DNA of 64,000 nt from Octopus sinensis (lineage: Eukaryota), in the NCBI RefSeq assembly GCF_006345805.1, contig NC_042997.1:64914001-64978000 (forward strand). The letters are read 5' to 3'. Positions 20,670 to 62,116 of the stretch are shown here, piece by piece (positions within the stretch are counted from its first letter, which is position 1; every line of letters begins with the position of its first letter). The position numbers were made by a program, and so were the translations under genes. The notes beneath the pieces were generated by a model. That model made no database searches. It saw only the letters and a list, made by a program, of their open reading frames with translations, and was not told the DNA's origin.

Positions 20670-20688
20670 ATATATATATATCTGTGTA

Positions 20689-20726
20689 TCTTTCTGTTGA
20701 AGAGCGTAGGCTCGAAACGTTAAAGA
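20689..20726 (+). ncRNA. Degenerate minimal hammerhead-like motif in a short (TA)n-flanked repeat
   Basis: TCTTT-CTGTTGA-A-GAGC-GTAG-GCTC-GAAAC-GTT-AAAGA. Stems I and II pair, but the core has A6->U. Confidence 0.45.
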
Positions 20727-20823
20727 CTTGTTTTATTTATATTTCCTGAGCGCCATACTAATACAATTGTTCGTTTGTTTTCCACCTGCCTTCGTCTGTT
20801 GTCTATTTTCATAAAGCTTCCCG

Positions 20824-20863
<40 letters not shown>

Positions 20864-39152: not shown

Positions 39153-42100
39153 TATATATATATATATTAATTATTCTCTTTTTGATTTATCTCTAAAGTC
39201 TAAAGCTATGTACATATAGTTATAATTTATATAAGTTAATTATATTATTAATGACAGAGCCGACAACATTCAACGGGATCATAGGCTGATTTTGTTCTTC
39301 ATTCAGGCTTAACACAGTGATGACCTATGGATTAGTTGGGCTACAATATAAAGCTACACTCTTGTTTCCTTGGTGTTTAGTTGAGGAAGTGCCAATCAAT
39401 TGAATTACTGTCTTTTTATGTAATACAATGATATGTTTTTAAAGTTGGATGTGATGGTTAATAGTTTTTTACATTCCGTGATGTTTCTCCTATACAGAAA
39501 TATGATTTGGTAAATGCTGCCCTATCTCCATTCGTTTGAGTCAGATTTTTATACAACTGGAGTACGTAGGGAATACTTATACGATTAGAACTGGATAATG
39601 ACGCGATGTTATATGTATGATACCATCTGCTTTTAAAGCTGCAGTTCCTTGTAGGTTATTTCAAAGCGTATATATAACGTTATAATGTATTGTTATGGGT
39701 TTAAAAGAATGGATAATCATAAATACACTGACTGATATACTGCAAATTTTGACGCCTTTGCTTTTATATACTATATTGCCTTGACAATCTAAAGAATAAA
39801 TTCTGAAAGCCAGAATTGTCTGTTCTTTGCAACAGGAGTGTCGAATACTTTGTATATAGAACGTTAGCGAAAAATGGCGTCAAAAACCAGAGCTCATGTA
39901 GAGATCAGAGAGGATCGTATATATACTTTTATTTTATTGAAACCAACATGTACATTTGATAGGGGATAAATGAGTATTTCAATGTTTGAACCTAATGCTA
40001 CCATTTACTGTCGTAGATAAAATACACAGGTACAGTCATGCATTGCTTGATGGATTTATTCATATTCTTAATTATTGTTGTCATTTTGGAGACGGGTAAA
40101 TAATGAGAGTTTGAAAACACATTTTAATCGTCATAATTATAGGGATGGTACATTAATGAATATATGTCCTGGATTCTAGACAAGAAGGTTCTTTGCATGC
40201 GTACAAATATACTAGTCTATAATATATTAAAAATGAGCTTCAATCTAGCAGGAAAAACAGGAGACGTCATGAATCGGATGCTAGTGTGAATACAAATGTA
40301 ATTAAACAAGTTTTGCGCAAATCGGTCAGAGATACGCGCTTTTTCGAGTACCTTTATAAAGAGCTATACCGGCGTATAATGGGGAAAATGCTTTGAATGC
40401 TAGGTAAATGTAAATACACACAGAATAATAATTTTTCCTAGACCGGACCAGGGATTCTCGACATACGCGTTTTTTCGGGTAACCTGAAATTTTGATGAAA
40501 GAACGGGTCACGAGTAGTCTGGTATTATAATAAAAATGAACTTCAACCTTGCTTGCTTGCAATGTTACACAGCCAAACTGTTGCATAATGTGAAAATACT
40601 ATATATTAGGTATCCCCTTAAATATATAAACGGAATAAAAAAAAGTTCGCGTAAATCGGACAGCTGAATCTTGAGATATTGCAGTGTTTGGGGGTATAAA
40701 TACCCAAAACGGTGCATCATGACAAAATACTGTGAAAATAACTTAACCACGAGGGTGAAAAAACTCTAATCATTCGATTAGAAACATTATGATTTTAATT
40801 TGCCAACGAGACATTACGAGTTCTTTTTACAGTAAATGGCTCTATTTTCGCTTTTCTTAAAGAATATGTTAATCATTTAGAAATATTTTTAATTGAATGT
40901 GATTTCAAAAGTGTAAGTAGATAGTACAGTAGGTATGTATATTTTAGCTTCCTTTAAAGTGTGAATATTAACATTTAAAAAAAAAACATTTTCAAGTCAC
41001 TACCATTAAAAATTTTCTTTTGAAAACTTTAAAAATATTTTAAAGTGAAAATGACTCTAAAAATACGGTAAATAGTTCGTAAATGGTCCCGTTCGTAACC
41101 TTAGTGTGAAATATCTTTTTCCATAGGTTTTTTCTGAGTGCATTCAAGGGATCTCACCGCCAAAGATTTGGTTGCTATTTCTAGTACGCCCTGCTACCAA
41201 GAAACAACTATTTTTGATAAAGGACCCAAAAGTGTTGATACGTGGTAGAAGGATGTGCAAGAATTAGCAGCTAAATCTTTCCTTTTCTAGAGAAAGGAGC
41301 CGTTTACGCGTGATTTCTATGTCATATTGAATGCTTGCGAAATAACATGGTAATATTTTTATAATCCCACGGAACGAAACTCCGTTATTGGGAATCTCAA
41401 AGTTACCCAGGAAACACCGAATTCCTCCACAAACCTTCCCCCTTTCTTTTCCGGAAGAAAATGGCTTGCACTGGATCTGGAGGTGAAATACGTTAAATGC
41501 ACTCGAAAACATCTGTGGTAAAAATTATTTCACAACGAAATATAAACGGGTTCTTTATGAAATATTTACCCAAGATCGGGACATTGGATCAGAATAAAAG
41601 GATCGACGGGACTGATAAAGCAAGTACTGAGCATCTGGCGGAACAGAGTGAAAGAGACAAAACCAGGTGGCGCCATGAATCGGATACAAACGGAATAAAA
41701 CCTGTTTCGCGTAAATCGGACCACGGGTTACCGAGATTCGCGGTTTTCCAGATACCTTGAAATATTGGTTACCTAATGTCTCACAGATCGTTTCGTATCT
41801 TATAATGTTGAGAAAGTTGGTACGCTTTCTGTCATATATTTGAGGTACTAGAAACAAAAAAATGATATAGTTTTAGTTAGTGTTCTCTTCTAGTAATAAC
41901 AATTTTATGATTTAGGTAATCCAGTTCTCCTACATTTAAAATTTAATATACATTTGTTCTGTCAATTTACGAAGAGTGCTAATTTGCATTAGATTCTATA
42001 TCGTATTCGTGAAAATGTTTTAAAATATCGCTTCAGTTCTGTAAGTCCTTCGCTCCTGACCAGCTAAAGTTAAACCAATGATATATACTCTAAAGGAAAT

Positions 42101-42187
42101 AGTATAATCAGCATTTCAACTTGTAAAAACCAAGCTACACACAGAGAGTCAACATATTGTTGCCTAAAAAAGACAATAATCCAATTA

Positions 42188-43259
42188 TATTTATGCAATT
42201 TTAGATTTGTGAGTGGTTAGAACAGCGTGGCCTATGATTAGAAGATAATTCCGAAAAAGAGAGTCTCTGATGCAGAGGTCACACCTGTCAGTTGCCATTC
42301 TATTATTTACTTTACGCTGCTCATTTGTGCGATCAGCATGTCTTCTGCCGTGAACATTAGCTTCTTTCTCCCGTTTTGAAGTATCATTTTAATTTAATCC
42401 TGTCCTAGGAACCCATGATTCTGTATTGATATTGGCGGTGATTAGGACTTCCATATACCATTTTTAGACGCATTTGTGGCGCGATTAGGTATAGCTATTA
42501 AATCATTTCACAGATGGATATATTACGTAAAAGATATAATTTTATATGCGGCTACTGCCCATACCATGGATGTGATCCACCCAGCGTTGTCTTCACTACA
42601 TGAACAAAATGGACTACACACTATGTAGCCCAGCTATAGCAGAATCGCTGCAAGGGATATTGTCATACTTGCATTTGCTCAAAATACAGTAGGTGCATGT
42701 CACCCTAATGCACGATGACATAAGCCTCACAGAACACCTTCCTGAGGTCAATAAAAGTGGAGAAAGAGAAGATATTTGTTCTGTTCTCAGCACTTGCTCT
42801 GAAACTGGTGAAGGAACACAGTCACAAAAGCCTCGCTATCACTGAGTAAAACCCACTGCCAGAGTCTGCAATGGTTTTTCCTGATTGCTGAAACAAAGGC
42901 TTTTTAAATGATGTACACGAGGGAGATACCTCTGTAGCTGGAGTTTTCTTGAAGCTAAATTATCAATAACCATACCGAACATTTGTAAAAGTGACAGCGT
43001 GCCCAGTACCTTCGTGGATATCAGACACTTATGTTTCCGTAGATAAGGTTGGCATGAATATCACTTTGGATATATATCTGAGTAGTACTCTGTCTAACCC
43101 TGCAGCTTATGCATTTATCTGTCTTTACTTTGAGACAGGAAGTGAATGTGGCAGGTTCTCTCGTTCTGATCTAGTTCAAGTAACCTCTTGATGCCCTCGT
43201 AAGTTCCTTCAATGTTATTATAGCGATGATCGCAATCTCCTATATACTAATCCCATTAC
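42188..43259 (-). mobile_element. Degenerate, internally deleted RTE-clade LINE flanked by a 122-bp direct repeat
   Basis: Minus-strand relics SYRGISL, FIDLRKVF, RWVDHIHGM and CDLCIRD. Flanks 42066-42187 and 43260-43381 are identical except for one base seen. Confidence 0.75.
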
Positions 43260-43725
43260 AAAGTTAAAGCAATGATATATACTCTAAAGGAAATAGTATA
43301 ATCAGCATTTCAACTTGTAAAAACCAAGCTACACACAGAGAGTCAACATATTGTTGCCTAAAAAAGACAATAATCCAATTAGTAATGAATGTTTTTTGGC
43401 TCATTCAGCACGAAGCATATGTACGGTGTTCTCGGCGATGTGGATTCTAGAAGACAAAACTTCGATACTGAAAACTGTTTGGTTGGAATACGTCATGTTT
43501 GCTCTACCAACACACCAGTCTTGTCTAGGTGGATATTAATAATGTCTTGATTGAATGGTAAATAAAATTTACGAAATGGAAATAGAAAAAGTGCCTCATT
43601 TACTAGTTTGGAAAACAATAACACGTAATTATGGCTTATTGTGTGTAATTACACCTAATGTATATTTGCATGAAGTGGATATACATGTGTGTGTGTGTGT
43701 GTGTGTGTTATGTATGTACGTATTA

Positions 43726-43780
<55 letters not shown>

Positions 43781-46309
43781 GAGTGTGTGTGTGTGTGTGT
43801 GTACCTAAATACATGCATATACAGAAATTGCTTTCACACAGAAGTCCTGTGTAAGTATGATTTTACAGAAAGGAACACAGTCGATGTGGCAACATAGCTT
43901 AGGAAAATAAATTAAAATCTATATTGTATTACAAAGGAAATTTAAGTTAAATATGTCTATTGTATATTATAATATATGCGTGTATACATACATGCGCATA
44001 AATTTATGTTGATGTATATACATATCAACACATGTATGTGTGTGTGTGTGTGTATGTGTTTTCCTGTGATTCAATGTGTATGTATGAGTGTATCGCTCTG
44101 TATGTACGCTAAAATGCCCGTGCAAGAGCATATGTATATTTCTAAGTTTAGTGGTGAAACTTTCCTTCATGCATAATTCATACAAGGCATAAAAGCATAA
44201 CTGTTTCTTTGTTTTAACATATTTTTTCCTTCTTTTACAGTTCCTCATATTATCTTATTACTTTATTTGATGCCATATTACACTTAGAAGTATTTTTCTT
44301 TCCGAACTCTGATTCAATATATCTAGATTAAATGTCCAAACAGACATGGCTGGTCGAATATTAGATTTGGTATGTTTATATTCTATTACTTAACTTATTG
44401 ACTATTGACATTTGAAAAGTATGTTGGGAATGCGTGAGTATCATCAATGTGAAACTTTTCTGGCATACCTTTATGTTTTATTGAATATAAAGTTTGATTG
44501 AATATATCGTTATACTAAAAGGGTCGTCTTAGAAATATCAATACATGTTTACAGTTTTTTTATATATTTGTTACTTATGAGTTACTAATAAATACATTAC
44601 AATACCACTTTGTAGAATTATATATATAGAGAGAGTGAGGAAAATTTCGGGCTTAGGTCATTGTCTTCCGCGATCTTTACAAGCGTGTATATTTGCGTTT
44701 CAAGTAAAATATCACAAAACTGAGTTAATTTTTTTTTGTACGCTGGTTATGATTCTATTTTTCTTGATTTTGTCTTCAATCTTGTTGATAAATAATTCTT
44801 CTACGTTTTACCAGAACCACGAACATGAATCCGTATTTTTTTCTGACACTCCTTGTCCTGTTTTTCAATGCACACCAACTTTATTCGAAAACCTGGGATG
44901 CGTGCGTAATAGCAACTATCATCATCATATAGTAATACAATGTAATCACACAGGAGCATTATCAATAAAACATTGATAGAGAACAGTGAAAACTGTTGAG
45001 TGAATACAGGACTGAGGCTGACTTTCATGTCTCTGGGTTTGATGGAAGAAGAACCACTTAAGTATCGAAAATGACTCGATCAAAGTAGCTCAGCAAATAA
45101 TGATACGAGGACTTGTGTCTATGCAAAATCTTCTTATTGGTAAAATTTAAGCATAAAGTTTCAGGTATTGAATAACGAAGAATGCATACGAGATCCATAA
45201 TCATCTGAGCAACATTAGAAGTATAAAAGACAACAAAACCATATTTGTATGCGAAACAAAATCTATTTAGATTTAGATTAATTGCAAACCATAAAAGAGC
45301 GTTATAAAGTGAAAGATCTGAATAAATTTTGCTATGATTTTTTCCCGTTTTCGTTACCCCGAAGAAACATATGGCTTATTCGTTGAGATACATGAATGGG
45401 TGATAATTCCAACCTTCATTTCATTCATATTGATGACGAAGTTGTATTCAATAGATGGAAAATATAATACAGCATTAATAATAGAATGTCTCAATAAAGC
45501 AATTCCTGAGTGATCACAAAAAGGAATTCACGCTTAAAATGATTTGTAAATTTATTCTGAATCCATCGAAATTACACATTACACATACAATAACTATGAG
45601 CGAATGTTTCTGCCAGGATATGAATAGAAAACGGGTAAGATATCAGGAAATAATATCTTCCAATTCCTTCTAGTAAATGATGCTTCGGAATGAGATTTTA
45701 AATGCCAAAAAATTTCAAAGACAAGACAGATATATAAATGAGTACTTGTATACATATACGTATAAGTATGTGTGTTCAGATATCTCTATTTGTGTGTGTG
45801 TGCATTTTGCCACCAATTACTACACACAAACATTTTACAATGTTCTTTCCCTCACACTTTCTCCCTCCCTCCAGCTTTCAGTGACCCTCCTCTCTAACAT
45901 TTATGCGAGGTCAAATCACGATATATTTCCTGGCTTTCTATTCTCTGTATATATTTTTTTCTCTTTAAGTCTCTGTATTTCTGTCCTTTTTAATCGGTGT
46001 ACCTCTTACGCTACATCTCCCTGTGTGTGTTATAGTACAATTTTCTTTCGAAGACTTATATTACTTACTCTGAATACCCCCTACATTTCTCTTTATAGCT
46101 ACATTTACTTCTCCCTAATTGTGCTTCTTTACTTCAATCTTCTTATCATCGCTACTTTCTTACCTCTTTCTCTGCCTTTTCTACCACTGATATGGTCTTG
46201 AAAATCGTTATGTGTATAGCACTTTGGGCATACACATTTACTATGACATGCATCTCGTTATATTTCCCAGATTTTTGGGCCTTCATAATCAGAAAGCTCT
46301 TTCACATTG

Positions 46310-46500
46310 TTTACGTCGTTAGCACGCCGGAAAACGTGCTCAGAGGTATTTCATCCATTTTTGTGTTCTGTGTTCAAATTCCACCGAAGTTGACTTTGCC
46401 CTACATCCTTTCGGAGTCAAGAAAATAAGTAACAGTCGAGCGCTGGCGTTGATGTACACGACAGATCTTTGCTTCACAAACTTTGCCTATATTAGAAAGA
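46310..46500 (+). mobile_element. SINE
   Basis: CGTCGTTAGCACGCCGG...GTTCAAATTCCACCGAAGTTGACTTTGCCC...CCTTTCGGAGTC contains a B-box-like GTTCAAAT. Confidence 0.7.
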
Positions 46501-47994
46501 ATTATCATCATCATCATCATTATTATTTTTAGCCTAGTTATTTTTGTTGATGTTGTTGTTGTTAATATTTAATCTATTAAATGCTAAATTAAGTAGCAGG
46601 GATATTGTCTTGTCTCGATGTCTGGTAACATCGAAACTCTCTCCTAAGGTTCTTGCTGAATATAGGATTGCAGATTTTTTTTTTTATGTTGACAATACAA
46701 ATCTTAATTCAAATTTCCTCAGTTGATGCACTAGAAAAAATGCTGTAATTCTGTCGTTTTCAACAACATTTACTCTCTCCTGCAAAATTAGTTAAAACAC
46801 ATCGAATCATATCCTATATAACAAATAGTATATGAGCCAGTGACACAATTCTAAAGAAACAAAGAGAAAAATATATAATTATTATTATGCTGATATCCGG
46901 CTGTAACATACTTCATTGATACAACGTCTGTTAAATGAACATAACTAATTGAACTGGTGACCTGAATAAAGTTTCAAGATAATTTCAACGATAGCGAACT
47001 AAGGCCATAAAAATAACTCATTTTCGTTAGTGCTGAATATAATTAATACAATTCTGTTAATTTTATTTTAATATTGTTAATTAAAATACAGTGTAACTTT
47101 ATTTCATTGATCATTGTTTCGAAAATTTTCATTTTTTCCAGATAAATAGAAGCATGTTGTTTTACGCCTGATGGTCTTTGAGATATTTTATATTGATATG
47201 AACGTTTGTGCCTTTGGAAATTGTCGACATTTTCAATGCAATTCTGTGCCAGTTTGGCTGTTATCTTAAGTTGTTCAACATAATCATGAGAAAAACGGTT
47301 ACTAGCTGTAGTTATATTGCAATAAAAATTGTTCCGTAATTAACATAATAATACATTTTAAGACATTTAAGGGAAGCGAAAATGCTCTATTGTACTTTTA
47401 GATTGATTATTGTTCTTTACATTCTAATATTTTACCGTTAGTCTCTTTACATGGAATTTATAGAAAGAGGCTTAGATCTTTCTAGATCTTTCAAGATATT
47501 GTAATCCAATAAATACATTAACTAGTGCATCTGAAGCTCCTGTGAACATCTAAAATTCCATACATTTATGCATATAAAGTCCAATATTGACAGCTTGAAC
47601 CAATAAATATACAAATATTCTAATAATCACGTTTTGATGATGTGATGTTAAATAAATATCGAATTGACAGTCGGTTTTATTTTATTGTTTCCCAGTGAAA
47701 GTGACAATTACAAGATTAATTGACAGATTTTCGCTTTTGGGAAGAATTATATATGCTACAGACTTTTCTTTCACCAGTAATCTTATACAAAAAATACATT
47801 AAATAGAATCTTTAAAAAGCTAAAGAAAGAGCCACAGAATATATTTTGGAAATTAATTTTGACAGTTAAGCTTTGGTGTTATGCAGTGCAGTATGACATT
47901 TGATGTGAGAAAATGGTAATCCTTGGAACAAAATTATTAAATGCGCTTTGATCAACATTCCCGGAAAGAATAACATCATCCAGAATATCATAAA

Positions 47995-48909
47995 TCTATA
48001 TAATAATATGCTTGTTCGTTCACCCGTCATACTTCAGTTAGTAAGGGAGGTAGAGTGAGTGAGAGGCGTAGTAAGTGAGAGGTGGAGTAATTGGGAGAGA
48101 TGAGGAGGAGTGTGACTAGAGAAGTAGAGAAAGGTGTATAATAAGGCCAGTTGCATCACGCGGTTAGTTGAAGGGGGGGGGGCAAAGTTCGAGAGAAAAA
48201 GACGGTGAGAGAAACGAGGGAGTGAGAAATGTTAATGACGTGCCGTAGGGTGTAGAGGGAAAAATAAAGAGAAAGCGATATGCTTAGGATACAGTATTTA
48301 GCAGATGGTGAGGTTCTGGAGGTGATGTTAAAGAAAGGCAGATAGAGAGAGAGACGGAGAGGGGAGGGGAGGCTGTTACATTAAGAGATAGAGAAAAAGA
48401 TGGGCAGAGAAGGTAGTTACATAAAGAGAGATAGAGAGAGATAGTGTTTGTATTGTCAGTAAGGAAATGAAATGAGCTTTGTTAATGAAAATTCTATTAA
48501 TGATGATGTGGTGAGGGGTTGTTGCTCGTGAAAAAAATCTTTTATTTAACCAGATCTTTAATATTATTCTTCTACCTGTTCGTTCACACTTTACGCTTTA
48601 GTTTGTTAGAGAGGAGATGGAGTGAAGGAGAGGAAGAGGGAATGTGAGAGTGAATGAGAGAGCAGATAACCAGCCAATGCATTATGCTGTCGGTCATGTG
48701 GTTAGTGAAAGTGAGAGGGGAAGAAAAAGAGAGAAACGTTAAAGCCATGAAGAGAGGATAAAATGTTAGCAGAGGGAAATTTGAAAATCATATAATGTAT
48801 TATTATGACTTTGCAAGACAAAAATTTAAAAAATGCAAACCATCCTCTCTTTCTTAAATAGCTTCTCTTAATATTTTTCATTCTGCGGGATTTCCACGGA
48901 TCCCACTAG
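47995..48909 (+). mobile_element. Non-autonomous Helitron
   Basis: A|TCTATATAATAATATG start, and a 3' hairpin GGGAT-TTCCACGG-ATCCC followed by ACTAG|T. Purine-rich interior with an internal duplication (TGTTCGTTCAC at about 48013 and 48577). Confidence 0.75.
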
Positions 48910-49198
48910 TACGATTTTAATTGCCCAATATATATTTTACTTTTAATTTGTTTTTGTCTTACGAGAGAGAATTTGGAAATATTAAATTTCTAAATCCCTC
49001 ATAGAGATATGTACGGTGGTGGGGCGATAGAATGGTTGTATACTGTCAATCTAACGTGAACGTGACAGTAGGGGGTTACACCACCGCTGTTTAGCCCTAG
49101 GAAGCATCGACGCTTCCTGCTGGCTTCGACACATTTTTCCTGTGTCCTTATATACATTTACGAAGGGGAGACAAACACCCTCAGCAGCCAGGCCTGCA

Positions 49199-49245
49199 TC
49201 TAGAGACACGCATGTTTCAGGATCATTGTCCATCATCGGTCAAGA
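49199..49245 (-). ncRNA. Minimal type I hammerhead ribozyme (left retrozyme arm)
   Basis: Minus strand reads TCTTGA-CCGATGA-TGGACAATGATCCT-GAAAC-ATGCGT-GTC-TCTAGA. Confidence 0.65.
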
Positions 49246-49272
49246 GTAGCAGACGCCCGCCAGCTGTTGATA

Positions 49273-50905
49273 AATCTTTATTATAGGCACAATGGCCCGA
49301 ATACAGAGCGGACATATCAATACAGGTACATATAATAAAAAAAATACAAAAAGGATGGTATGACAATGAATTATTTATAATGAATTAATGAAATGTCTTA
49401 CGGGTTCCCCAAGCTCGCAGTTTCATTTAAATTACCATTGTGTTATTCAGAGCGTTCATCTGTTATGTATTCGAGTACTTCCTCCTGCTCTATAATCCCT
49501 GGCAAACTCTCGTACCGAACGTATTGCATTATGCTTATACCTTTGCTCAGTTTCATCACTGTCTCTCTTTCCACAATCGCCGCCTTCACCTGATCATCAA
49601 ACATTTTCGGATTTAATTTCACTCTGGTTAAATTTTTTATGTTTGCCAACTTCTTCTCAATTTCCTTGTCCTTCCTTGTCCTACCGCTTTCAGATTTCTT
49701 CCTTTTGGTCTATTTCCTTCCTTACATATTCTCAGCCAATCTTCCACTTTACTTTCCCATTCTTTCTCCTCCTGCCGCCTTGAAACTTCACTGGCTTTCG
49801 TTTCAGTATCTTCCTCTTCGTGCGTTCGAACCTCTATCTCGTCGGTAGTCTTCTTTTTTGTTTTTTTCTTTTTTTTGTTGTACTTTAGGTAGTGATTCCA
49901 CCCGCGTTCTCTTTCTATCTTCTTTTCCTTCTGTTCTTTCCTTTTCTTCCTCCTTCACCAACTCGTCACCACTTTCCACATTATCTGTATTCACACTTTC
50001 TTCTTCTACATCCGCCATTTGCAATTCCTCTGTCAGAGCCTCCAATGTTATCATCTCCTCTTGTACTTTTTTTTGCGGACACACATCCTTCATGTGGCCT
50101 CTAATCTTACATCTGTAGCACACTGGGGGTCTCCCCTCTACCACGACTCTGAGCCGTGTCTCGTCGGGGAACACCAACTCTTCTGGGATGTTATACATGT
50201 CTGGCATGGTTATGTGTACCAAAGCCTGTACTGCATAACCCCACCACTTTACTTCCTTTGACCTTTCTATCTTCAATATCTCGACATTCTCCTTGCAGTT
50301 AAATATTGTTGCTGCTATAATTCTCTCCATTTTCAATTCTGGTGAAATTTTGCTGCTTCTTATTCTCACCGCTCGTTTTCCACAATAGCTAGGTAGTAGT
50401 ACCCATTTTTCATTTTTCAGTATTTTCGTAGCGTTCTTCTTTGCTTCAGCTTCGTTCTCAAAATGAACTACCACCGTCGCGTACTTTCTACCTCTATTAT
50501 AGAAGGTAGCGTTTTCTTCAATCTCCTGCAAACACCTCTCGATTTCCTCCACATCTGCCACTTCTATTTTCTTCGAAGCCACGCTCCACGTTCTATATGC
50601 CACAATACGCCTCTCTGCCTCCTTCACTTCGTCTTCTGGTAGTGTGACTCTCAGGCAGTCACCCTCCTTCTTGAAACTGTTGAAGTATTCCTTCAGGCTC
50701 TCCTTCTCGACGACCACTTCCTCCAACTGCAGCTCGCTCGCAGCCAGACCCTTGCCTGCCGCTCCTGCATAAGTTTGGGTTTGCATATTCGAAAAAAAAT
50801 TTCCACAATTCACCACGCCGTAACAGCTTCCACCAACGAACTCGAACTCAGAACCGCGACACACAATAAACGTAATCCAAAATATCCGACATAAACAGAA
50901 AAAAA
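49273..50905 (-). mobile_element. ORF1-only (HAL1-like) Tx1/L1-type non-LTR element with a 15-bp TSD
   Basis: CGCCAGCTGTTGATA occurs at 49258-49272 and 50906-50920. The uninterrupted target is visible in the right arm (51271-51285, reverse complement). Contains a CCHC ORF1, no RT, and a 3' AATAAA. Confidence 0.8.
49803..50786 (-). CDS. Gag-like/ORF1 nucleic-acid-binding protein with a CCHC zinc knuckle (frameshifted continuation to 49443)
   Basis: Open frame from MQTQTYAGAA, containing VVVEGRPPVCYRCKIRGHMKDVC (CX2CX4HX4C preceded by G.P, typical of Tx1/L1 ORF1). A charged C-terminus continues in shifted frames to ...ITDERSE*. Confidence 0.8.
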   Translation of the reverse strand: MQTQTYAGAAGKGLAASELQLEEVVVEKESLKEYFNSFKKEGDCLRVTLPEDEVKEAERRIVAYRTWSVASKKIEVADVEEIERCLQEIEENATFYNRGRKYATVVVHFENEAEAKKNATKILKNEKWVLLPSYCGKRAVRIRSSKISPELKMERIIAATIFNCKENVEILKIERSKEVKWWGYAVQALVHITMPDMYNIPEELVFPDETRLRVVVEGRPPVCYRCKIRGHMKDVCPQKKVQEEMITLEALTEELQMADVEEESVNTDNVESGDELVKEEEKERTEGKEDRKRTRVESLPKVQQKKEKNKKEDYRRDRGSNARRGRY

Positions 50906-51297
50906 CGCCAGCTGTTGATATCTGTCCCGATTCGCAAATGTAAATATCTAATTTTCAGTGAAGTTTATTCACTGATTACCAAAATCAGAAATATTAAATT
51001 TCTAAATCTCTCATAGAGATATGTACGGTGTGGGGCGATAGAATGGTTGTATACTGTCAATCTAACGTGAACGTGACAGTAGGGCTAAACAGCGGTGGTG
51101 TAACCCCCTACTGTCACGTTCACGTTAGATTGACAGTATACAACCATTCTATCGCCCCACCGCCATACATATCTCTATGAGAGATTTAGAAATTTAATAT
51201 TTCTGATTTTGGTAATCAGTGAATAAACTTCACTGAAAATTAGGTATTTACATTTGCGAATCGGGACAGATATCAACAGCTGGCGTGCGTCTGCTAC

Positions 51298-51344
51298 TCT
51301 AGACCGATGATGGACACTGATCCTGAAACATGCGCGTCTCTAGA
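51298..51344 (+). ncRNA. Minimal type I hammerhead ribozyme (right retrozyme arm)
   Basis: TCTAGA-CCGATGA-T-GGA-CACTGA-TCC-T-GAAAC-ATGCGC-GTC-TCTAGA: 6-bp stem I, GUC cleavage triplet, quasi-palindromic stem III. Confidence 0.72.
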
Positions 51345-52329
51345 TGCAGGCCTGGCTGCTGGGGGTGTTTGTCTCCCCCTTCGTAAATGTATATAAGGAC
51401 ACAGGAAAAATGTGTCGAAGCCAGCAGGAAGCGTCGATGCTTCCTAGGGCTAAACAGTGGGAGTGTAACCCCCTACTGTCATGTTCACGTTAGAGAGAGA
51501 ATTTACTTTCGGTAAACTATTATTGGCGACATTTGCAGCTTCAAATCGCTATATCTCATATGAAATACATACTGAATAAATATTCGTCCATTGTCATGTC
51601 TAGTAATAATCATTTTTTAAAATACAGTTACCTTCTTGATCAACACACACATGCCTATTCCCGCAATTTTTGTTTATACCGTTGCATATATAAATATAGA
51701 TATGTGTGTGTGTGTGTGCCTGTGTGTTTATGCGTGTGCCTGTGTGAGTGATAGTATTTGTGTGGTAAGAGTAACTTGGAACTTGTAGCAACGACGTACT
51801 CACAACTACAGATTACCTATGCGATGTACTTCACTTCTCAGTTGTCTTCATTGAATATAATATATAGTTTATGACGGGCAAGAATTGTGAAGAGTCTGGG
51901 CCTTCAGCTACGAATTGCAGGTGTAAATCTCAGTAAGGTAACTCTTCAGATAAACAGATATGGCTTTCAATAACTGTGGTAGAGTGTCTTTTTATATAAA
52001 TGAGTCTTTATTCAGACATGCTCTGCCAGCAATCCGAACTATACGCCTGCTGATGTGTTGAGAGTATGCTTCAACTTATCTTATATTTGGATACGAGACG
52101 AACAATCTCAGCTTTCCATCCAAAATGAGGGATGGACTCACTAGACGTGCCTTAACATCCCAGGTTGAAAACATTTTAATTTAGATGAAGAATTTATCAA
52201 CTAGCAGTTGAAATTTACTCACAAAAATGTAACTATATTTTACACAAATGTTACTGGTTTGCAAAGGTAACAGCGTAGTACAATGGTATAAATTTTACAT
52301 TATGGTTGGTAGTAATATTCCTGCTAAAA

Positions 52330-52643
52330 TTTTCAATAGAATTTTCTATCCTCTTCAGCATAATAGTATTCCTCGCCCACTAAACACAAATACAGAAAGA
52401 AAGAGTGGTATGATGCTGCAACATTTAGATGCACCAAACCATATTTATGCCACTAGATATGTTGCGAAAGTCATCATGGAAAATATGATGGAAGCAATCA
52501 ATATAACAGCTTGTGCCAAAGAATACCTTATGATTCCACAGTTTTCCTTCGCAAGAGATATTGTATTTCAGTTCAAACGCCGTATATTTCTAGTGGCGAT
52601 GTCTCTTTCGATAACAATCAACAAATCTTATGCTAAAGCATGA
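52330..52643 (+). pseudogene. Helitron PIF1 helicase fragment
   Basis: MLQHLDAPNHIYATRYVAKVIMENMMEAINITACAKEYLMIPQ...FQFKRRIFLVAMSLSITINKS aligns to MLLRNLDAPKLCNGTRL...FKRLQFPV.LAFAMTINKS. Confidence 0.8.
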
Positions 52644-53858
52644 AATACAATAATATTCCAATTCTTTTTATTTATTTTTTTAGGTGTTCATGATATTCCT
52701 TCTGGAATTTGATTACCTATTTACTGATATTTTTCATCTGATAAATAGTTACATAATGAATATTGTTATAGAAACCTTTTCAACAGCAACTCTTTATCTT
52801 CTCTGTGAACCTTGGTGCAACTTTGTTTTACTTCATATACAGGTCTAGGTCAGTGCATATCCATGTAGGCTTGTCTGTGCTTATATTTGTGAATGTGTGT
52901 AACAGATATGGATTGGTGGAATCTTTAGAGAAAAGACAAGGGCCATTTTAGGAGTAAGGCATGTCAATGTAAGAGAATTGTACACTAATTTTCACAATAG
53001 GCAAAAGCCCTTTCAAATTCTATTAAAATACTTTTCCCAATGTATAAGAAGTCATAATTTTAAAATTATTTCTTGGATCATATCTAACCAAATGTTAAAC
53101 AAATATTATGATATAATTATCTATATTGATAAAAGCAAAATTCTGTCTATCTGACTAGGACACCTCAATCTCAGTCTACATTTGCTCTTCATAGATATAT
53201 TCTACTTTTTTGGCATCAAGATTATCTCGGAATTGAAAATCTGCCCTTAATTTGGTTCTTGGACATACATCATTGGGATCCGATTTCGAAGCATTTGGGT
53301 TGCTATTTCTAGCAGGTAAAGCTTGGCTGATTCACGCCATCTTGGTTGACGTTTGTCAGATGACATCAGAGATCAAGGAGGGAGAGAAATTACATCCGCG
53401 TCATTAATTTTACGTCGAGATAATAACTCTAGGACAAATTGACCAACAGTTGGAATCAGTAGACTGATAGCATTACAGAATTAATTCCGTCCTTAACCTC
53501 TGATCAAACACCAATATAGTCATTTTAGATGAATTATAGTCGTGCTATTCAATTCGGTTTAGTTTTGAGTGGTAGGTCGAATTAGCCCTCCGCAGGTGCT
53601 ACCTTACAAGTTCGCACGGAATGCGGCTTTTAGAGAATAATATTGATAAACAGAAGAGCATACAAAGTTATGAACAAATGTAATATGTAGCATCGTATAA
53701 CTACTGTTTGGATATATAATCTCTTGCGATTTCAACAACTGCCTTTGGTATTCATTATGAAACTATATCGAATATTCAACAACAGGCTGAGGCATTCCTC
53801 TCAATGATGAAATACGATCCATCATGACATTTGAAATTTAATAATACATTCATAGTTG

Positions 53859-53897
<39 letters not shown>

Positions 53898-54100
53898 CGT
53901 GTATACATATTTATTTCTACATCTCTCTCTCTTTCTCTCTCTATATATATATATTTATATTTATATATATTTATACATATATAAATATATATCTATTTAT
54001 ATATTAAGTTAGACATGGCCTGGACCAATCTTTGGTCGAAACATATCTAAGTTTTATATATATATGTAAATATAATATGTGACAATTATTCGGTAGCCTT

Positions 54101-54161
54101 GATAAAACTCCGAGTTTCGGATATCGGGGCGGAAACCCACGGCGCCATCTCTTCAGTTATC
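54101..54161 (-). ncRNA. Type I hammerhead-like motif in a (TA)n-flanked short repeat
   Basis: Minus strand reads GATAA-CTGAAGA-GAT...ATCC-GAAAC-TCGGA-GTT-TTATC. A second, more decayed motif (GACCAA-TCT-TTGGTC-GAAAC) lies at 54008-54050 on plus. Confidence 0.6.
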
Positions 54162-54399
54162 CGGCTGTAAATAAATGCTATGAAAATGACCGTTAAACAA
54201 ATGGAAATTACCTTGTGATTGATCCTTGTTAAGACAAAAGAGCTATTAGAAAGATCCCTAAGTGAGGGGAGGGAGTAAAGGTAAGGGAATAAAAATATTC
54301 ACAGTATTCGCGTAAGCGCGCATGCCCATACCTACACATGCACGCCCGCCTGTGTGTCGGAATTGGAATAAGTTTAATAACACTTGTGCTAATTTCATG

Positions 54400-54435
<36 letters not shown>

Positions 54436-54442
54436 ATATATA

Positions 54443-54494
<52 letters not shown>

Positions 54495-54591
54495 GTGTGT
54501 CGGAATTGAAATAAGTTTAATAACACCTGTGTTTAATTTCATTTACATAAATATATATATATAATATATATAATATATTATAATATATATA

Positions 54592-54650
<59 letters not shown>

Positions 54651-54695
54651 ATATATAATATAATATATATATATAATATATAATATATATATATA

Positions 54696-54739
<44 letters not shown>

Positions 54740-54799
54740 TACAAAAAGATTTTAAAAAGTGTTCATTGACTCCATCTCATAGATGCCTTTCTAATCAGT

Positions 54800-55720
54800 T
54801 TTCAAGCTAATTCTGAATTTGTTTTTGAAAATGTCAATATTAATCTATACATTTATTCATATTGTCTGGCACGCATGCATTTTTGATCAATTTTTCCGCC
54901 TTATCTGTAAAATGAACCTCTTATACATCTACTTGTAATAGTTACTTATTTTGTTCGTTGGTTTTGAGTAAATCTTTCATCTCTTCAAAAGAAAGTGTAT
55001 ATTTACTTTTACGGAACCAGTATACTTACATATGTAGTCTAAGATCAGATGATTTATCTTCAGTAAGGATTTGTGTAACTAGTGTTGCAGACGAGATGCT
55101 CTAACAGTGATGATTACTTTTATAACAAAACTCACGACATGCCTAAATATATGCATTTTACCATTGCCAAGCTCCTTGAGAGTTAGGCCAATAAAATGCT
55201 ATAATGTTTGGAATGGATTCGTGTACTGTACGAAAATAAATGTTTCGACACTATCAAAGATTGCTAGTGTCTCTTTAGTGGAAATTGCAGAATGCATGTA
55301 CAGAAGCATATAGTTTGAATGTTCTATGGCTATATTCAACTGGTGTTTACTGCATCATATGCAATATTTTCAATGTCTCTTCTTGTGTAGAGGAGCTACT
55401 AAATATGCTTACAACGTCTATCAGCTGTGCTGTTTGATATATATATATATGCTGAACCATCAAATTATAGTGAGAAGTAGTCACATTTTATCAAGTCGTT
55501 CTTCAGCTGAATGTGCATGTCAGTTGAAATTACAAGTACTATTCGTATAAAAGTGTTGTCTGATAACTGTAAGTCTTGCTGACATAATCTCACAGGTGGT
55601 AGAATATCCATTAAATAACCTATCATCGCCATTCAAGAAGGCTTCTTTTAACAACACGCATCTTCTCATATCTTGTTTTCTTTCTTGCGTGTAAATGAGA
55701 AATGTGAAAGAATCAATCTT
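54800..55720 (-). pseudogene. hAT (Buster/SPIN, GTF2IRD2-like) transposase relic
   Basis: Minus-strand translation LLKEAFLNG...MHIQLKNDLIKCDYFSL*FDGS...TAQL matches the QL...FSLQ.DESTD...AQL motif. Heavily decayed. Confidence 0.7.
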
Positions 55721-57494
55721 GGCATTTTTAGATTTTCTTATGTTAACAACTACAACACGAGTGTTAAGTACACAGAACTAATTTTCATTTCTTTAATTCT
55801 GTCTTATTTTATTTTAGACTGGGTGGATGTTATTAAAAAAAGATAGACGTGCGATTAGACTAAAAATGGTGTTCAATATTATTTATATATACTGCTCCTA
55901 CGCCACCACAAAATCAACAACTATATTTGTCTTTTAACGTTAAAGTTATGCGGTTTTATTTTTGTCTTCATTTGAGCCGCTCTTTAAAATGAAATATATT
56001 ACAACACAGGAGACATGAAATATAGGCACTGATTAACTATTTGTCACACTAAAGTGCAATTTCTATTCTTTTGTATTTCCGCTGCATAACGTTGCGAACG
56101 GAACGTACGAAATTTATATCTAATAAATGCTGTTTAATTATCCATTTCATAGGATAACAAAATTAAAGTTGTTTGTTCGATGCCATTCGTCAATGCTGGT
56201 GTTACTGACAATTTAAAGATAATATGAATACCGATTTCAATAAAATATTTCCTTTTACTTGCGTACATCTTAGTACTGTACTTGTACTTTTAAATTTTGT
56301 TTGCTAACATTTTTCGGACCACAAAGGAAACAATCTATGAAGTCTAATGCATTTAAAAAGTTCAAAATATATATAATACCTTAAAACAGTTATGAAAATA
56401 TCAATGACAGACAGTCAATGGGTTGCATATTCAAAAGGGTTGAGGAGTATAATGCGTCCATGAGCACAAAGAGGAAACATCTGCTCTAAAATCTTCGCTT
56501 GCTTTCATGTACTTTATTTAGTCGCTTCGTTTTCTTAGTGTAAATGTCACTATTACTTTTTTCCTCTGATATCTATCAATCATTATTGCTTCTCTCCAAC
56601 CCGGAGCTATGTATGGTTTTGAACATATAGTGTTGGATTTGAAGGAGATTTTACAAATAGATTGAACAAGCTGAACCACTGTGTAAAATTTGCATTCTTG
56701 AATCACATTTACAGAGGATATTATCAATTATATCCAACATCAATACTAGAGGATTTTCAATTCACATAAATCAATCTTAATTTTATTCATAAGGTTTTCT
56801 GTTCTCTACACAACTTGTAAATTGACTTTCGATGTTTTGGATAAGTCTGTTCTTATGTTCATTTCGACAAGCCAAATATTATGATATACTTTTGAAGTGA
56901 AGCGCATAGAAACACACAAGGGCTGTTCGATTTGGAAACCCCAATATGTAAGACTATATTGTTTCCCTGTGATAGCAGATATACATCAAATTGATTGTGT
57001 GTATGTGTGTGCGCGTGCGCGCATGTGTGTGTATACACATATATATTCTTCAGTCTTTTGAGAAAAGCAATTTTTTTCCATATGAAGTGTCACACAAATG
57101 AAATTATATTATATATATATATATATACATTGCTTATGTCAAAAGTATACGTCTCCTCTTCTGTGATCAACGGAGATCATGAACTAACCCGAAGTTAACA
57201 CGAATATAGAAATACATGCATGCATAAATACTATATTCAACTCACATACACACGCTCACACCTACAAGCCCACACACATGCCTGCACGCACATACACGTT
57301 CATATATATATATATATATATACGTTTAAATATTTGTTGTGCAAGATTTTTTATGTGAAGTCGTGTGTTGAAACAGATATTGTTATATTTCGGAATGGTC
57401 ATATTGCCAGTGTAGCCAACACACGCACTATATATTTGGTGTTATTTTGCTTCAGTGATATTTATTTTTTACATTAATCTTAATCTTATTTCGG

Positions 57495-57534
57495 CCAAAG
57501 TTCTTTCGTCACACTCTTGTGACCGCATCAGTGG
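57495..57534 (-). ncRNA. Hammerhead-like motif in the Penelope pLTR
   Basis: Minus strand reads CCA-CTGATGC-G-GTCAC-AAGAGT-GTGAC-GAAAG-AA-CTT-TGG, on the same strand as the PLE ORF. The core deviates (A9->C). Confidence 0.5.
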
Positions 57535-58008
57535 TCCTTTGTTTTCTTCTCACTTATTTGTGTCTCTCCTTACTAACCGTCAGCCATTTTGTATTTCTAT
57601 TGTATGTCTTCATTTGCGCATGTTTATATCTCTATGTGCGTCTATGTTTATTTAGTGTGTGGGGGGGGGATGCCTGTAATATTTGTATCTTCTGTTTATA
57701 TACATTCTTGTAATTTGTATTTTGTTTTTGTTGTTGTTGCTTTTGTTCTAATTTTGTTCATGTGTTTACATCCACCCATTATTATCATTACATATGCTTG
57801 TATGTATAACAACAATATTAGTAATAATAATAATAAATCTAATCGAAAAAAAAATATATATTTATATATATACACACATATATACACATATACATATATA
57901 TATATATATACACATATACATACATAGATATATATACATATATATAGTTATTCATTTCTATTTGTTTATTTATCTGTGTATTTATTATGCTTTCAGGATC
58001 CTCTATCG

Positions 58009-59180
58009 TCATATGTTGTGGTGTGTGCTATTGCTCCATTCTAGTTTTCTATTCAGGCTAGGTTTATTTTCTATTATATGTGTAGCTTCTGTAATTTGTC
58101 TAATTGTTGCATCTGTTCTATGTGTGGACAATATCTTAATCTCTATGTTATTGATTGATCCCCCGTGTTCCTGTTCGGCGTGTTGGTACAGAATCGATGA
58201 GCTTTTACCTTCCTTGAGTTGTCTCCAATGTTCATTCACCCGCTCTCCAATGCTTCTTGCTGTTTCCCCTACGTATGTTACTGTCTTGTTACTGCATCGT
58301 TCCTCTATACATCTTATACTATAGACTACATTTCTGGCTTTACAGTTTGTTTGTGGGCTAAATCTACATACAGTGCAATAGTTATCCGTACAGAGGGTTC
58401 TACTAAAAGGATAGGTTCTACCAATTATAGATCTGATAGGGTTGCCTGGCTTTTCAACAACCTTAATTCTTAGTTTAAGTTTATCTAGGGTCCTTCTAAA
58501 GCGGTACGCCAGTTCACCTCCAGGGGTGGTGTCAACGAACATGACACTCTGGTATTTATGGCTATCATACCAAGAGTTGGCCTTCCCTATTTTCTTTTTT
58601 GTCCTTTCTATAGTGTTCCATGACTTGTTCCTATAGATTGGGCAAATCCCATTCCTATCATTACATAATATATTATCAAATTTCTTCATGGCTCCTTTGT
58701 ATACTCTGATCCTTTCTTTATGGCTGTACCTGAGAACTGCATGCGGTGAATGAAATACTGTATGTGTCTCTTTAATTCTGTAGGCTCGCACATGCGTGAC
58801 ACATTTCTCATTATTCTGACGAGGTCTGCCATCAAAATATTGAATTTGGCATTGCCCGCAATGGCTGAGTTCCGGTGGATCAGGTATTTTGAGGCCATAG
58901 GTTTTGCATAGTATGAATGAAGGATTTGGGTTTTATTTTTCACAATTTCTAGCCAGAGTTCAGTGTCTAGTACTGGTAGTCTATGGTTGGAGTGTTTAGT
59001 GGGGTAGTCTATTGTGACCTTAATACTCTGGTGGATGGAGTTAGCTATTTGCTGGATGCTCTCCATAGTATTAGTTTCTATTACTATATCAACATTACTC
59101 TCTGGTGGGGGTGCCTTTACTACTATGTTGATATCATCAACATAGCGAGAGTACATGTTTACAAGTATGGATTTCTGTAA
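58009..59180 (-). pseudogene. Penelope RT (C-terminal half) plus GIY-YIG endonuclease, one frameshift near 58730
   Basis: RT motifs YSRYVDDI, LPVLDTEL and YYAKPMASKYLIHRNSA. Linker CTDNYCTVC...C. Endonuclease NVVYSIRC...TYVGETARSIGERVNEH...RQITEA..I...KPSLN. Confidence 0.92.
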
Positions 59181-59289
59181 TGTAAGATTAATGCAAAAAA
59201 TAAATATCACTGAAGCAAAATAACACCAAATATATAGTGCGTGTGTTTTTATTGGCTAAACTGGCAATATGATCATTCCGAGATATAAC

Positions 59290-59363
<74 letters not shown>

Positions 59364-62116
59364 ATATATATATATGTATGTATGCATGCATGTGTATATG
59401 TATGTATGCCTGTACGTATGTATGTATGTATGTATGTATGTATGTATAGGTACAGTCTGCTGATAGCAATGATCAATTTCGACACCTAGGTTGAGCTCTT
59501 CACCTTAACACCATTATTTCTATAACTAAAGCATAATGTTTCTAAATTCATGTCCAATTTCTCTTCAATGAAAATATTTGTATCTGTGTGTGTGTGAAAG
59601 TATGTGTGTGTTTGTTGGTGTGTATGTGCGAACGCGTATGCGTTTGTGTGTATGTGGCGCGCGCGCGTGTGCTTGTGTATGTTTGTGAATTTGCATTCTA
59701 ATTTCGACTGCGAATATTCCACGCAAATCCAGACTTAATTTCATCACTGCAAAATCTATAGGGAAGATATAAGAAAATGTTATCAATATTCACATGACAA
59801 AGATAAAACTACCATTTCGATCTGACTCGTTTCTTTGGGATAAATGCGAATGTCGGAATGTATTTACACTGCATTCTAGATCCTCCAAGGAGGATTCACA
59901 GAATTTTCATAATCTAAATCGTTTTCTAAACCTTACGCAGCGTCGTATTAATGCGGAATAATTTCAAAAATGAACTGAAAGTTGATGTTCCTTTGGAGGA
60001 ATGTTATTCATAAACCAATGATATTTTGCACGACGTTTCATTACAGACTCCAGTTATCTATGAGAGGTAAGTATTTAGAGGAAGATACTGCCATCAAAAT
60101 AGTCTCCACGTAGTCACTAATCTCATCGGAAGATGCGGGTATGTCTCTAGGAAATCGCACTACTCAGCCTAGAGAAAAAATGTAGTTTAGATACTCCTAA
60201 AAGACTTCCTAGCTGAAATGCTTTCGATTAAAAAGTTTTCTCAATTTGAGGCTCAATAACATAGAGCTGGCAGAGATTTTTCCATTTGATAGTAATACCC
60301 CTCCAATTGTAGTTATATGAGGGTGGGAGTCTGGAACCTTTTAATAACTGCTTATTTTTTCTTAAAAGTTGATAATATATTTTCAAATTATATTTTTCGC
60401 GACAGTCCTATTGTGCTTTTAAGTCAAATCAAACTTCACCAATTATAGAGATTCCTTTTTTCCTTATATTTACTTTGCTTTAATTAATCCTCAGTATATT
60501 TTTGTTATCACGCCCGTTACACTGTAATTCAAAATGAAGGCTTTTCACCAAAATGTCACAAATTATTATAAAATTTAGAAAGTTTGTGTGACATTCTCCC
60601 TCTTTCGGCAATCGAAGTACATATTATTCATTTATAATACTTAAGTATTTTTGACTTAAATTAATTTTTCATTTGACAAGTTTTCATTAGAAAACTGTGT
60701 GAAATAGCATTTCGTTATAAAGCACCTTGTAAAAATATTATACTACACTGTAGTTCGATTTGATTTCGTAAGTATACTTGACATTTAATTAGCAAGTGTG
60801 TTGATGTGTAAATATGTATAAATGTCACTATAGAAATGTATAACAATGTATGACTATGCAGTATTTCACAAAGACATTTTAAGGCAATGATATGTCTGGC
60901 GCTAAATTTTTTGTTAATGCTTACCTAGTGGATGAACTTTTGTCATAGCGCTTCCGCCATTCGCCAGTAAAAATGTTAAGTACTGATGGAAACGTGATGA
61001 ATAATTTGTTACTATTCGGAATATTTACCAACTTATTTATTCTACATTTACAATGTGATATAATGTCTGCTTATTCGAACTTTCTGGATTTATTTTACAT
61101 ACTTGACTCTTATTTATTTAGAAATATTTCATCTCATACATCTATCCTCATTATCATAATGCGTTTAGAAAGAATTTATAAAACATACTTAAAATAAAGA
61201 AACGTGTCAGAAGAAATATTTCTAAATACAACAGTGTTAAATATCCTTAAAAGTCTGTACAAGTGCAGCCTTTTTAAGAAGACAGGGTAAAGGCCAATTT
61301 TTTGAGGAGGGTGTGAAGATAAAAGTCTCCTGTTAGTGAATGAATGACTTTTTAACGAGATTTAAAAAATATGTACCAATATGATGTTAACCTAAAACTA
61401 TATTAATTCATGCTATGCAGTACCTGATTAGTGTTATTAAAATAAGAAATATAACGTAAAATGTTATTCAAATTAAAGAGTGAAGTCATCATTATATATT
61501 AAAGAATGAAATCATCATTACGTTTTCAAATAACTCTGCTATTCAAAACTTCTAAAGATATCTCATTCCTATCACGGCTTTCGTGACGTTCAGTTGTTTG
61601 CTATATTTATCATTATAATTGGTGATACATACGAATCTCTTGATTAAATCAGGTAACATATCTACATATCCCTATTTTTCTCAATATATTTGAAAGAATC
61701 TATTACATTCTTATTTGATCAGAATTGGTTGTGTACATCGGAGTATTTATTGCATTTTCTATATGAAGTAAGCAATAACTTTTAATTCCCCCAGGAACAT
61801 TACGGCGTTATGTTCTACTAGAGCTACATATAAGCTGTGGCAAATATCATAACATTTGTAAATGTTATAGCATTTACCATTTTTATTTTTGAAACATGTG
61901 CTCAAATACACAGGTAAATAAAATGCATCCTTGCATGCATTTGGAGATGATATCAGATCTTTGATGAAATAATATGTGGTGAGAGCCTTTACAGAACAGG
62001 ATATGAGTTACTGTTGACTAAATTTAAAGTAACACTCTTGGTGATAGCGTAATCGTTTAACTTTTAGTAGTTAATTTAAATGTAAGAATTATATCGCCTT
62101 GAAATTATATAAAATA

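Follow-up and report, generated by a model that had tools for sequence, protein, structure and literature searches.

A hammerhead retrozyme of Octopus sinensis, laid out as a Penelope-type inverted pair, hosts an ORF1-only L1/Tx1-like insert whose family lands behind TATA-like boxes

We analyzed a stretch of 64,000 nucleotides from Octopus sinensis (assembly GCF_006345805.1, contig NC_042997.1, positions 64,914,001 to 64,978,000; hereafter the window), in which positions 48963-51504 hold an inverted, hammerhead-bearing repeat interrupted by a nested insert. We regard it as probable that this locus is a non-coding retrozyme integrated as a head-to-head pair, likely by a Penelope-like element (PLE) enzyme acting in trans, and that the insert is an ORF1-only member (ORF, open reading frame) of an L1/Tx1-like family of long interspersed nuclear elements (LINEs) that lands about 28 nt behind TATA-like boxes, likely through a tether to the RNA polymerase II (Pol II) start complex. 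The most unusual part of the locus is the insert, which an earlier reading made from the letters alone (the sequence-only reading) had removed before describing the arms. Positions are those of the window, and unit positions 1-365 correspond to window 51085-51449.

In at least three retrozyme families that differ in sequence, members of the insert's family occupy the same position, 15-38 nt ahead of the hammerhead core; further copies are found in sequence without a hammerhead. Most of the flanking duplications measure 14-18 bp (52 of 67 clean calls, counting duplicates), and their sequences are unrelated. To summarize the targets, 125 junction calls were reduced to the 87 that lie outside stacks, and these were grouped into 22 target clusters, because retrozyme-family B and C copies with identical junctions may share few insertions. 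This set includes the mis-called locus L125 and the ambiguous L182, and it omits L044. A TATA-like box was scored as at least 7 of 8 matches to the consensus TATAWAWR, starting 24-34 nt before the duplication. Such a box is present in 14.8 of the 22 clusters, as compared to a mean of 2.7 and a maximum of 5.7 in 23 other windows of offset. Among the clusters without a hammerhead, it is found in 10 of 13, against a background of 1.7. A held-out set of 40 further autonomous loci gave 20 duplication calls in 12 clusters, and here the box is present in 9.2 of 12 versus 1.1 (maximum 3.2), with the best offsets at 25-31 nt. Several held-out loci re-hit earlier targets; of the new targets that lack a hammerhead, three of four have the box (L272 is without it). 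One conserved target sequence was not found, as both the 22 and the 12 clusters are of unrelated sequence. What is shared is a fixed offset from promoter elements, as in elements of the TRE5-A and Ty3 type.

Two further observations concern transcription starts. One full-length copy duplicates positions -3 to +11 of an Rfam-confirmed U2 gene (one of 20 U2 loci, and none of 12 U1 loci). In addition, three copies (L151, L041 and L142) carry, behind their own duplication, a leader of 10-15 nt that comes from a different target and begins at or near the start of that target's duplication. These foreign leaders suggest that the donor transcripts began at the donor's insertion site.

It is important to consider that no protein tether may be needed. 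The endonuclease of an L1/Tx1-like family could cut the bent or melted DNA of open promoters, or some loose motif, and hitchhiking on PLE copying could then multiply a few insertions. Target choice in Tx1 elements has been attributed to the endonuclease (PMC4494074), LINE subfamilies favour particular retrozyme families, and hitchhiking is shown once (see below). However, the duplicated sequences are unrelated among clusters while the offset stays at 25-31 nt, and single targets, namely U2, L185, L239 and L254, obey the same offset. Moreover, a nuclease that reads promoter structure would itself count as start-site targeting. We consider an explanation without a tether unlikely, albeit one to be taken seriously, and continue with the tethered one.

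A second main target of the family is a CCAAT/TATA repeat with an inverted promoter copy (L136, L141, L143, L146, L147, L150 and L045). This repeat collects stacks of ORF1-only elements, up to four in a row.

The insert itself occupies 49273-50905 on the minus strand, i.e., in hammerhead sense, and has a T-rich 5' end and the 3' end ATAATAAAGA. It belongs to a repeat family of its own and is found at the same site in other units. Its 15-bp duplication lies at 49258-49272 (3' copy) and 50906-50920 (5' copy), also on the minus strand, and the 5' copy starts where transcription of the unit is predicted to begin. ORF1 (49803-50786, minus strand) has 327 amino acids and a CCHC knuckle (zf-CCHC, E 0.02, below the Pfam cut-off). 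It is shorter than the 444-466-codon frames of its relatives and carries an apparent frameshift in the charged tail. ZCCHC3-like RNA-binding proteins make up the named Atlas clusters nearest to it (0.90). We also considered the insert as a fixed internal part of a 2-kb element; this was rejected given its own duplication, variable junctions, stacking and other targets.

The insert family is large, with 375 DNA candidates and 14140 protein candidates, and stacks with a spacing of roughly 1.7 kb are common. Full-length partners of 5.3-5.5 kb share these stacks. They encode an ORF1 that is 25-35% identical and a 1129-amino-acid ORF2 with APE, reverse transcriptase (RT) and zf-RVT domains. All of the ORF1-only and full-length elements lack a poly(A) tail and have ATAATAAAGA or a close variant of it as their 3' terminus. 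We link the insert to these LINEs because of the shared ends, the shared sites, the mixed stacks and one chimera. The partner has the hallmarks of the L1/Tx1 group: a CCHC ORF1; APE, RT and a C-terminal zinc domain in ORF2; and duplications of 7-20 bp. The partner family therefore appears to be an L1/Tx1-like LINE and is a candidate member of the Tx1 clade. The best named protein relative of the associated element is an unannotated octopod protein (64%), and a metagenome scan gave only relatives of 28-47% (80 loci). A published octopus repeat library lists 13 active L1-Tx1 families and 30 Penelope families, and may already include those described here (PMC13282606). Two related copies are worth recording. 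At L073 (6204-9756), a second, distantly related ORF1-only family of about 1.35 kb stacks behind the first at the same retrozyme site, and L082 (1700-2390) holds an internally deleted 0.7-kb insert copy at that site with its own duplication.

The insertion point bears on how the retrozyme is transcribed. The right arm, which lacks an insert, retains the empty site and predicted transcription start at 51271-51285 (plus strand). A TATA-like motif (6 of 8; TATATATT in older copies) lies 27 nt before this site at 51245-51252. A motif resembling the proximal sequence element (PSE), starting ATCAGT, is at 51215-51235, within the third hairpin of the sequence-only reading and 56-57 nt before the empty site, as in this genome's U1 and U2 genes. 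The hexamer RYCAGT is present at -57 to -61 in all 19 empty U2 genes and all 12 U1 genes examined. Ahead of the insertion site, the same hexamer is found at a distance of 54-58 nt in no fewer than 18 of 23 junctions of family A and 18 of 20 of family B, but in exact form in just 2 of 15 of family C. In the CCAAT/TATA targets examined, RYCAGT is not at the 54-58-nt offset. We infer that the retrozyme carries a promoter of the small nuclear RNA (snRNA) type whose transcripts begin near unit 188-191, some 65 nt upstream of the cut site. Transcription of the unit by RNA polymerase III (hereafter Pol III), given its sole T4 run at 123-126, was set aside, since the inserts start with runs of T and have AATAAA at their ends. 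That run (window 51207-51210), the only one on the sense strand, coincides with the long priming site described below, and in families B and C, too, a T run is found at the corresponding place, ahead of the PSE-like motif. The U2 genes, for their part, gave 48 matches spread across many contigs. Their upstream regions fall into three or more types, which have nothing in common but ATCAGT at about -58 and a TATA-like stretch close to -30.

As the sequence-only reading had described, the arms are an inverted pair of terminally redundant copies of a 365-nt unit inside a 12-bp target-site duplication. The duplication, GAGAGAGAATTT, lies at 48963-48974 and 51493-51504 on the plus strand; these are its only two copies in the window, and the first 2 nt of the right copy overlap the unit as microhomology. 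The left arm, on the minus strand, consists of an outer part at 48976-49272 (unit 187-365-119), and an inner part at 50905-51084 (unit 22-202), in which a PSE-like motif (50956-50976) and a TATA-like motif (50939-50946) precede the insert. Without the 1.63-kb insert, this arm is about 463 nt long. The right arm, at 51080-51494 on the plus strand, is 415 nt long, i.e., a full unit plus 50 nt (unit 361-365, 1-365 and 1-45). The arms meet head to head at 51080-51084 in a 5-nt microhomology, TAGGG, common to both. They are 95.5% identical and have different ends. The three hairpins quoted in the earlier reading are present, and that reading was also right that the unit has no meaningful ORF, as all stop-to-stop frames are at most about 60 codons.

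The unit is a high-copy repeat. A search of its own genome returned 2414 candidates, with at least 137 matches from the 40 that were scored, and the permuted and multimeric copies anticipated in the earlier reading were found, in the form of variably permuted arms and one locus with two hammerheads in tandem (L003). Outer duplications are visible at many of these loci. The outer arm ends cluster at unit 56-69 (short) and 116-126 (long). We tabulated 39 two-arm loci by hand: 35 pair a short end with a long one, one has two long ends and three have an end outside both bins, such that 35 of the 36 classifiable loci are short-plus-long (p = 1e-9). In the window, the outer end of the left arm is at the long site, and that of the right arm, which falls at unit 45, can be counted as an early variant of the short site. 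This pattern agrees with work on the PLE PAc, in which two internal RT start sites define the tail and both target strands are extended in vitro (PMC11167929). Head-to-head repeats with a duplication and a one-sided tail are the typical PLE layout (PMC3846280, PMC8557442), and animal retrozymes have been argued to be non-autonomous PLE derivatives (bioRxiv 10.64898/2026.07.22.740005). Because its ends, tail and inversion all match these published descriptions, the inverted layout is known PLE anatomy. The unit is a non-LTR retrozyme of high copy number that adds a new member to a known class, with a layout ordinary for PLEs. The fixed ends thus support the earlier suggestion that Penelope-like machinery spreads it.

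That both arms arose in a single event also holds up, given the single outer duplication and the divergence of arms within a locus (3.1% of non-CpG sites, versus 4.9% to other loci). The accompanying claim that both RNA polarities were integrated does not. The ends of both arms fall at the same pair of sites on the sense strand, so both copy hammerhead-sense RNA, on opposite DNA strands.

We considered whether the inverted layout might be an assembly fold-back. No contig from four public runs spans the junction or reveals an empty allele, although contigs cannot show absence and these were therefore not taken as evidence. An artefact is extremely improbable, since the arms differ in sequence, length, ends and insert content and yet are bounded by one outer duplication, and since the layout with fixed ends recurs at 39 loci.

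Alternatively, the unit might be only the terminal repeat (pseudo long terminal repeat, or pLTR, plus tail) of a coding Penelope element, with these loci as its truncated products. The end pattern, the inverted layout and the presence of a promoter within the repeat are all pLTR features. However, unit position 126 continues into 127 and on round the unit in about 58 distinct loci, no PLE ORF adjoins an arm in any of these, and the PLE family that was checked is unrelated. We therefore think it improbable that the unit is merely a terminal repeat, and prefer a stand-alone retrozyme copied in trans.

Other copies and fragments were seen in the window and elsewhere. At 17190-17670 of the window, on the minus strand, is an empty copy of a sister retrozyme family that is more than one unit long and ends at a TA repeat; it has a canonical CTGATGA hammerhead at 17391, with ATCAGT and TATA-like motifs upstream. 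A 161-bp terminal-repeat fragment at 20681-20841 is 98.8% identical to an abundant coding PLE family. At L048/L049 (G000:C6:84705665-84713718), a whole two-arm, insert-bearing structure is tandemly duplicated at 3.4-kb spacing.

The hammerhead of the right arm spans 51297-51345 (plus strand), with the core CCGATGA (U4C) at 51304-51310, a near-palindromic helix III loop and a GUC ending at 51338, after which the cut is predicted. The left-arm copy, at 49198-49246 on the minus strand (core 49239-49233), has one mismatch in helix I. The sequence-only reading called this a minimal type I hammerhead; type I is correct, but it is not minimal in the sense of lacking helix III, as a short palindromic helix III is present and the core is U4C. 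The comparison with Rfam which that reading had suggested gave no hammerhead in 40000-60000 at E-values up to 1, nor in 48950-51520 at values up to 10. In sister families, the sequences of helices I and II differ with compensating changes, and 10 of 12 pairs change on both sides (21 hand-picked types). The figure of 96% helix pairing is inflated, because the presence of the helices was itself a condition for a sequence to enter the set. Positions 3 and 8 were left free by the search pattern, and they are Watson-Crick in 122 of 128 motif hits (86 C-G and 36 U-A, with 5 U-G and 1 C-A, duplicates included). As far as sequence can tell, this tertiary 3-8 pairing is an independent sign of hammerhead constraint. 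Three more traits of the motif, namely one additional base following A9, a G-C pair at the start of helix II and the palindromic form of helix III, agree with those described for metazoan hammerheads that act as dimers (PMC4209133). The unit's hammerhead thus resembles the metazoan dimer-acting type, and cleavage is predicted.

Whether the template was a circle is a separate question. The arms might be run-around copies of a ligated 365-nt circular RNA (or of a 2,012-nt circle with the insert) made by hammerhead cleavage of tandem transcripts. In keeping with this, the hammerhead is under selection, the unit folded as a circle is strongly structured (z = -7.0 versus 60 dinucleotide shuffles), mussel retrozymes of 350-390 bp give circles (PMC7229834), and the longest arms reach 772 nt. 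The cut site is crossed without a scar, with no indels at unit 249-261 in 43 crossings, which fits either a circle or uncleaved tandem RNA and speaks against sloppy template jumps. On the other side, two laps of an arm resemble each other no more than the two arms do: at matched non-CpG sites the two arms of a locus differ by 3.3%, two laps of an arm by 4.0% and different loci by 6.3%. Shared rare variants (arms 11/3951, laps 2/2199, different loci 0.025%) do not separate arms from laps with significance (p = 0.15). In addition, the majority of arms are shorter than one unit; only 2 of 43 (L088 and L082) exceed it in a sample retrieved with a 62-nt query, a length that gives long arms no advantage. 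One arm of L048/L049 holds both an empty and a filled site. Unprocessed RNA was the main substrate of the one PLE tested, and permuted, redundant arms are also expected from internal priming on uncleaved tandem transcripts (PMC11167929). A circle is no better supported than a linear read-through template, and we judge the specific circular route to be rather unlikely.

The 5' ends of the arms were counted at 28 distinct loci from the same short-query sample, leaving out L082 (which bears an insert and passes the start), another element that follows the first in L083 and the short fragments present in L096 and L102. By unit position, the 42 ends comprise 11 at 311-365, 22 at 256-310, 5 at 190-254, 3 at 71-189 and 1 at 26, with none at 250-258.

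The LINE and the retrozyme are also connected through copying. At L359, a two-arm insertion that ends at 68 and 122, the inversion junction falls within insert sequence, which implies that copying of the PLE type began at the priming sites and continued past the hammerhead into the LINE. L360 and L361, with ends at 124 and 69, are weaker cases: they are truncated inside the insert and have no unit upstream and no visible outer duplication.

Several points weigh against the composite explanation given at the outset. Half of the held-out loci (20 of 40) yielded no duplication call, and some targets (L059, L272 and L032) are without a fitting TATA box. L044, which was removed by the stack filter, has its TATA-like motif nearer, at about -21 to -25, and the window's own motif scores only 6 of 8, below our threshold. 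The many family-B and family-C copies with identical junctions may descend from few hitchhiked insertions. The clusters, too, are not fully independent, as the retrozyme families are related and L045 resembles the L136 family. With regard to the partnership, the insert has no blastn match beyond its 3' end to four autonomous copies, and its ORF1 identity to the partners is low, as given above. The bins for arm ends were chosen after the data were seen. A PLE partner was not found: no RT/GIY-YIG ORF lies beside any arm among about 58 distinct unit loci, and the one abundant RT/GIY-YIG family that was compared (16 loci) has no DNA in common with the unit. Finally, 22 of the 42 arm 5' ends lie 1-55 nt downstream of the cut site. 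This excess could mean that many templates were cleaved, or it could reflect stalling in a GC-rich hairpin.

The steps could be as follows. The unit would be transcribed from its internal snRNA-type promoter, starting near unit 188-191. A dimeric PLE enzyme with RT and GIY-YIG domains would cut AT-rich DNA with a stagger; priming then falls at unit ~62-69 for one DNA end and at ~116-126 for the other, both on hammerhead-sense RNA. The templates would probably be mostly uncleaved read-through tandem RNA, and joining of the two complementary DNAs by 0-5 nt of microhomology would give inverted arms within a single duplication. Copies of the L1/Tx1-like family, presumably tethered, nick just before +1 and again 14-18 nt further on, and insert in the sense of transcription. 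The LINE would then be transcribed from the borrowed promoter and form stacks at the same site, and it can be carried along when the PLE enzyme copies the composite RNA.

These elements can be compared with known systems. Non-LTR animal retrozymes likewise have a non-coding unit of 150-450 bp with a type I hammerhead, many dispersed or partial-tandem copies, long duplications and a proposed PLE origin (PMC7229834; bioRxiv 10.64898/2026.07.22.740005). The octopus unit differs in that inverted pairs and partial units predominate over tandem arrays, in its U4C and U3-A8 cores, in its snRNA-like upstream motif and in hosting a site-specific LINE. The endonuclease-positive PLEs Pen2a_Av (PMC3846280), PAc (PMC11167929) and Naiad (PMC8557442) share with it the head-to-head repeats with a duplication and one-sided tail, two internal RT starts, AT-rich targets and TATA/Inr motifs in the repeat. 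By comparison, the octopus unit has no ORF, its tail is about 55 nt instead of the 30-40 nt reported for those elements, and the pairing of short and long ends is counted here (35/36).

As for the LINE, Tx1L, Keno and Tx1-Mar are also two-ORF, APE-type elements found in other repeats and in an snRNA gene, with tandem stacking and possible reliance on flanking promoters; they are described as aimed at one sequence family each, whereas the octopus family keeps its promoter offset across unrelated sequences (PMC4494074). The octopus family hits U2 at its start, in contrast to Keno, whose target site is internal to the gene. With TRE5-A and Ty3, the octopus LINE shares a position set relative to the transcription machinery. 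The ORF1 protein of TRE5-A binds TBP, Brf1 and Bdp1, and Ty3 inserts at the start site via TBP/Brf1; both target Pol III genes, with TRE5 inserting 40-54 bp upstream in opposite orientation (PMC5911963). The octopus LINE, in contrast, uses apparent Pol II promoters and inserts at +1 in transcription sense. HAL1 (half-L1) elements are ORF1-only, non-autonomous relatives of L1. Compared with HAL1, the octopus insert is site-specific, heavily stacked and nested in retrozymes. Our literature search, with Repbase, Dfam and subscription papers outside its scope, found no report of a LINE that targets start sites, nor of Tx1 elements in Penelope or hammerhead repeats.

The strict pairing of short and long ends is a genomic constraint on PLE integration, under which the pair of start sites observed in vitro is divided between the two target strands. 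The insertion points, in turn, locate the start of the retrozyme and point to an snRNA-type promoter, which makes the transcription of an animal retrozyme directly testable. Start-site tethering is known for Pol III genes. A LINE at Pol II starts with a 14-18-bp window would, if true, be a new targeting rule; its insertions would form a natural core-promoter map of a large mollusc genome and supply a candidate part for promoter-directed insertion. In the broadest form of this idea, which we put forward tentatively and with slightly more doubt than belief, an animal L1/Tx1-like lineage would integrate with base-pair precision at Pol II starts of any sequence by docking on a TBP-containing complex. 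Retrozymes with snRNA promoters would be its main safe harbour, lending both a promoter and the Penelope machinery as a second copying route, and the whole would be a three-layer parasite with a natural promoter-trap nuclease.

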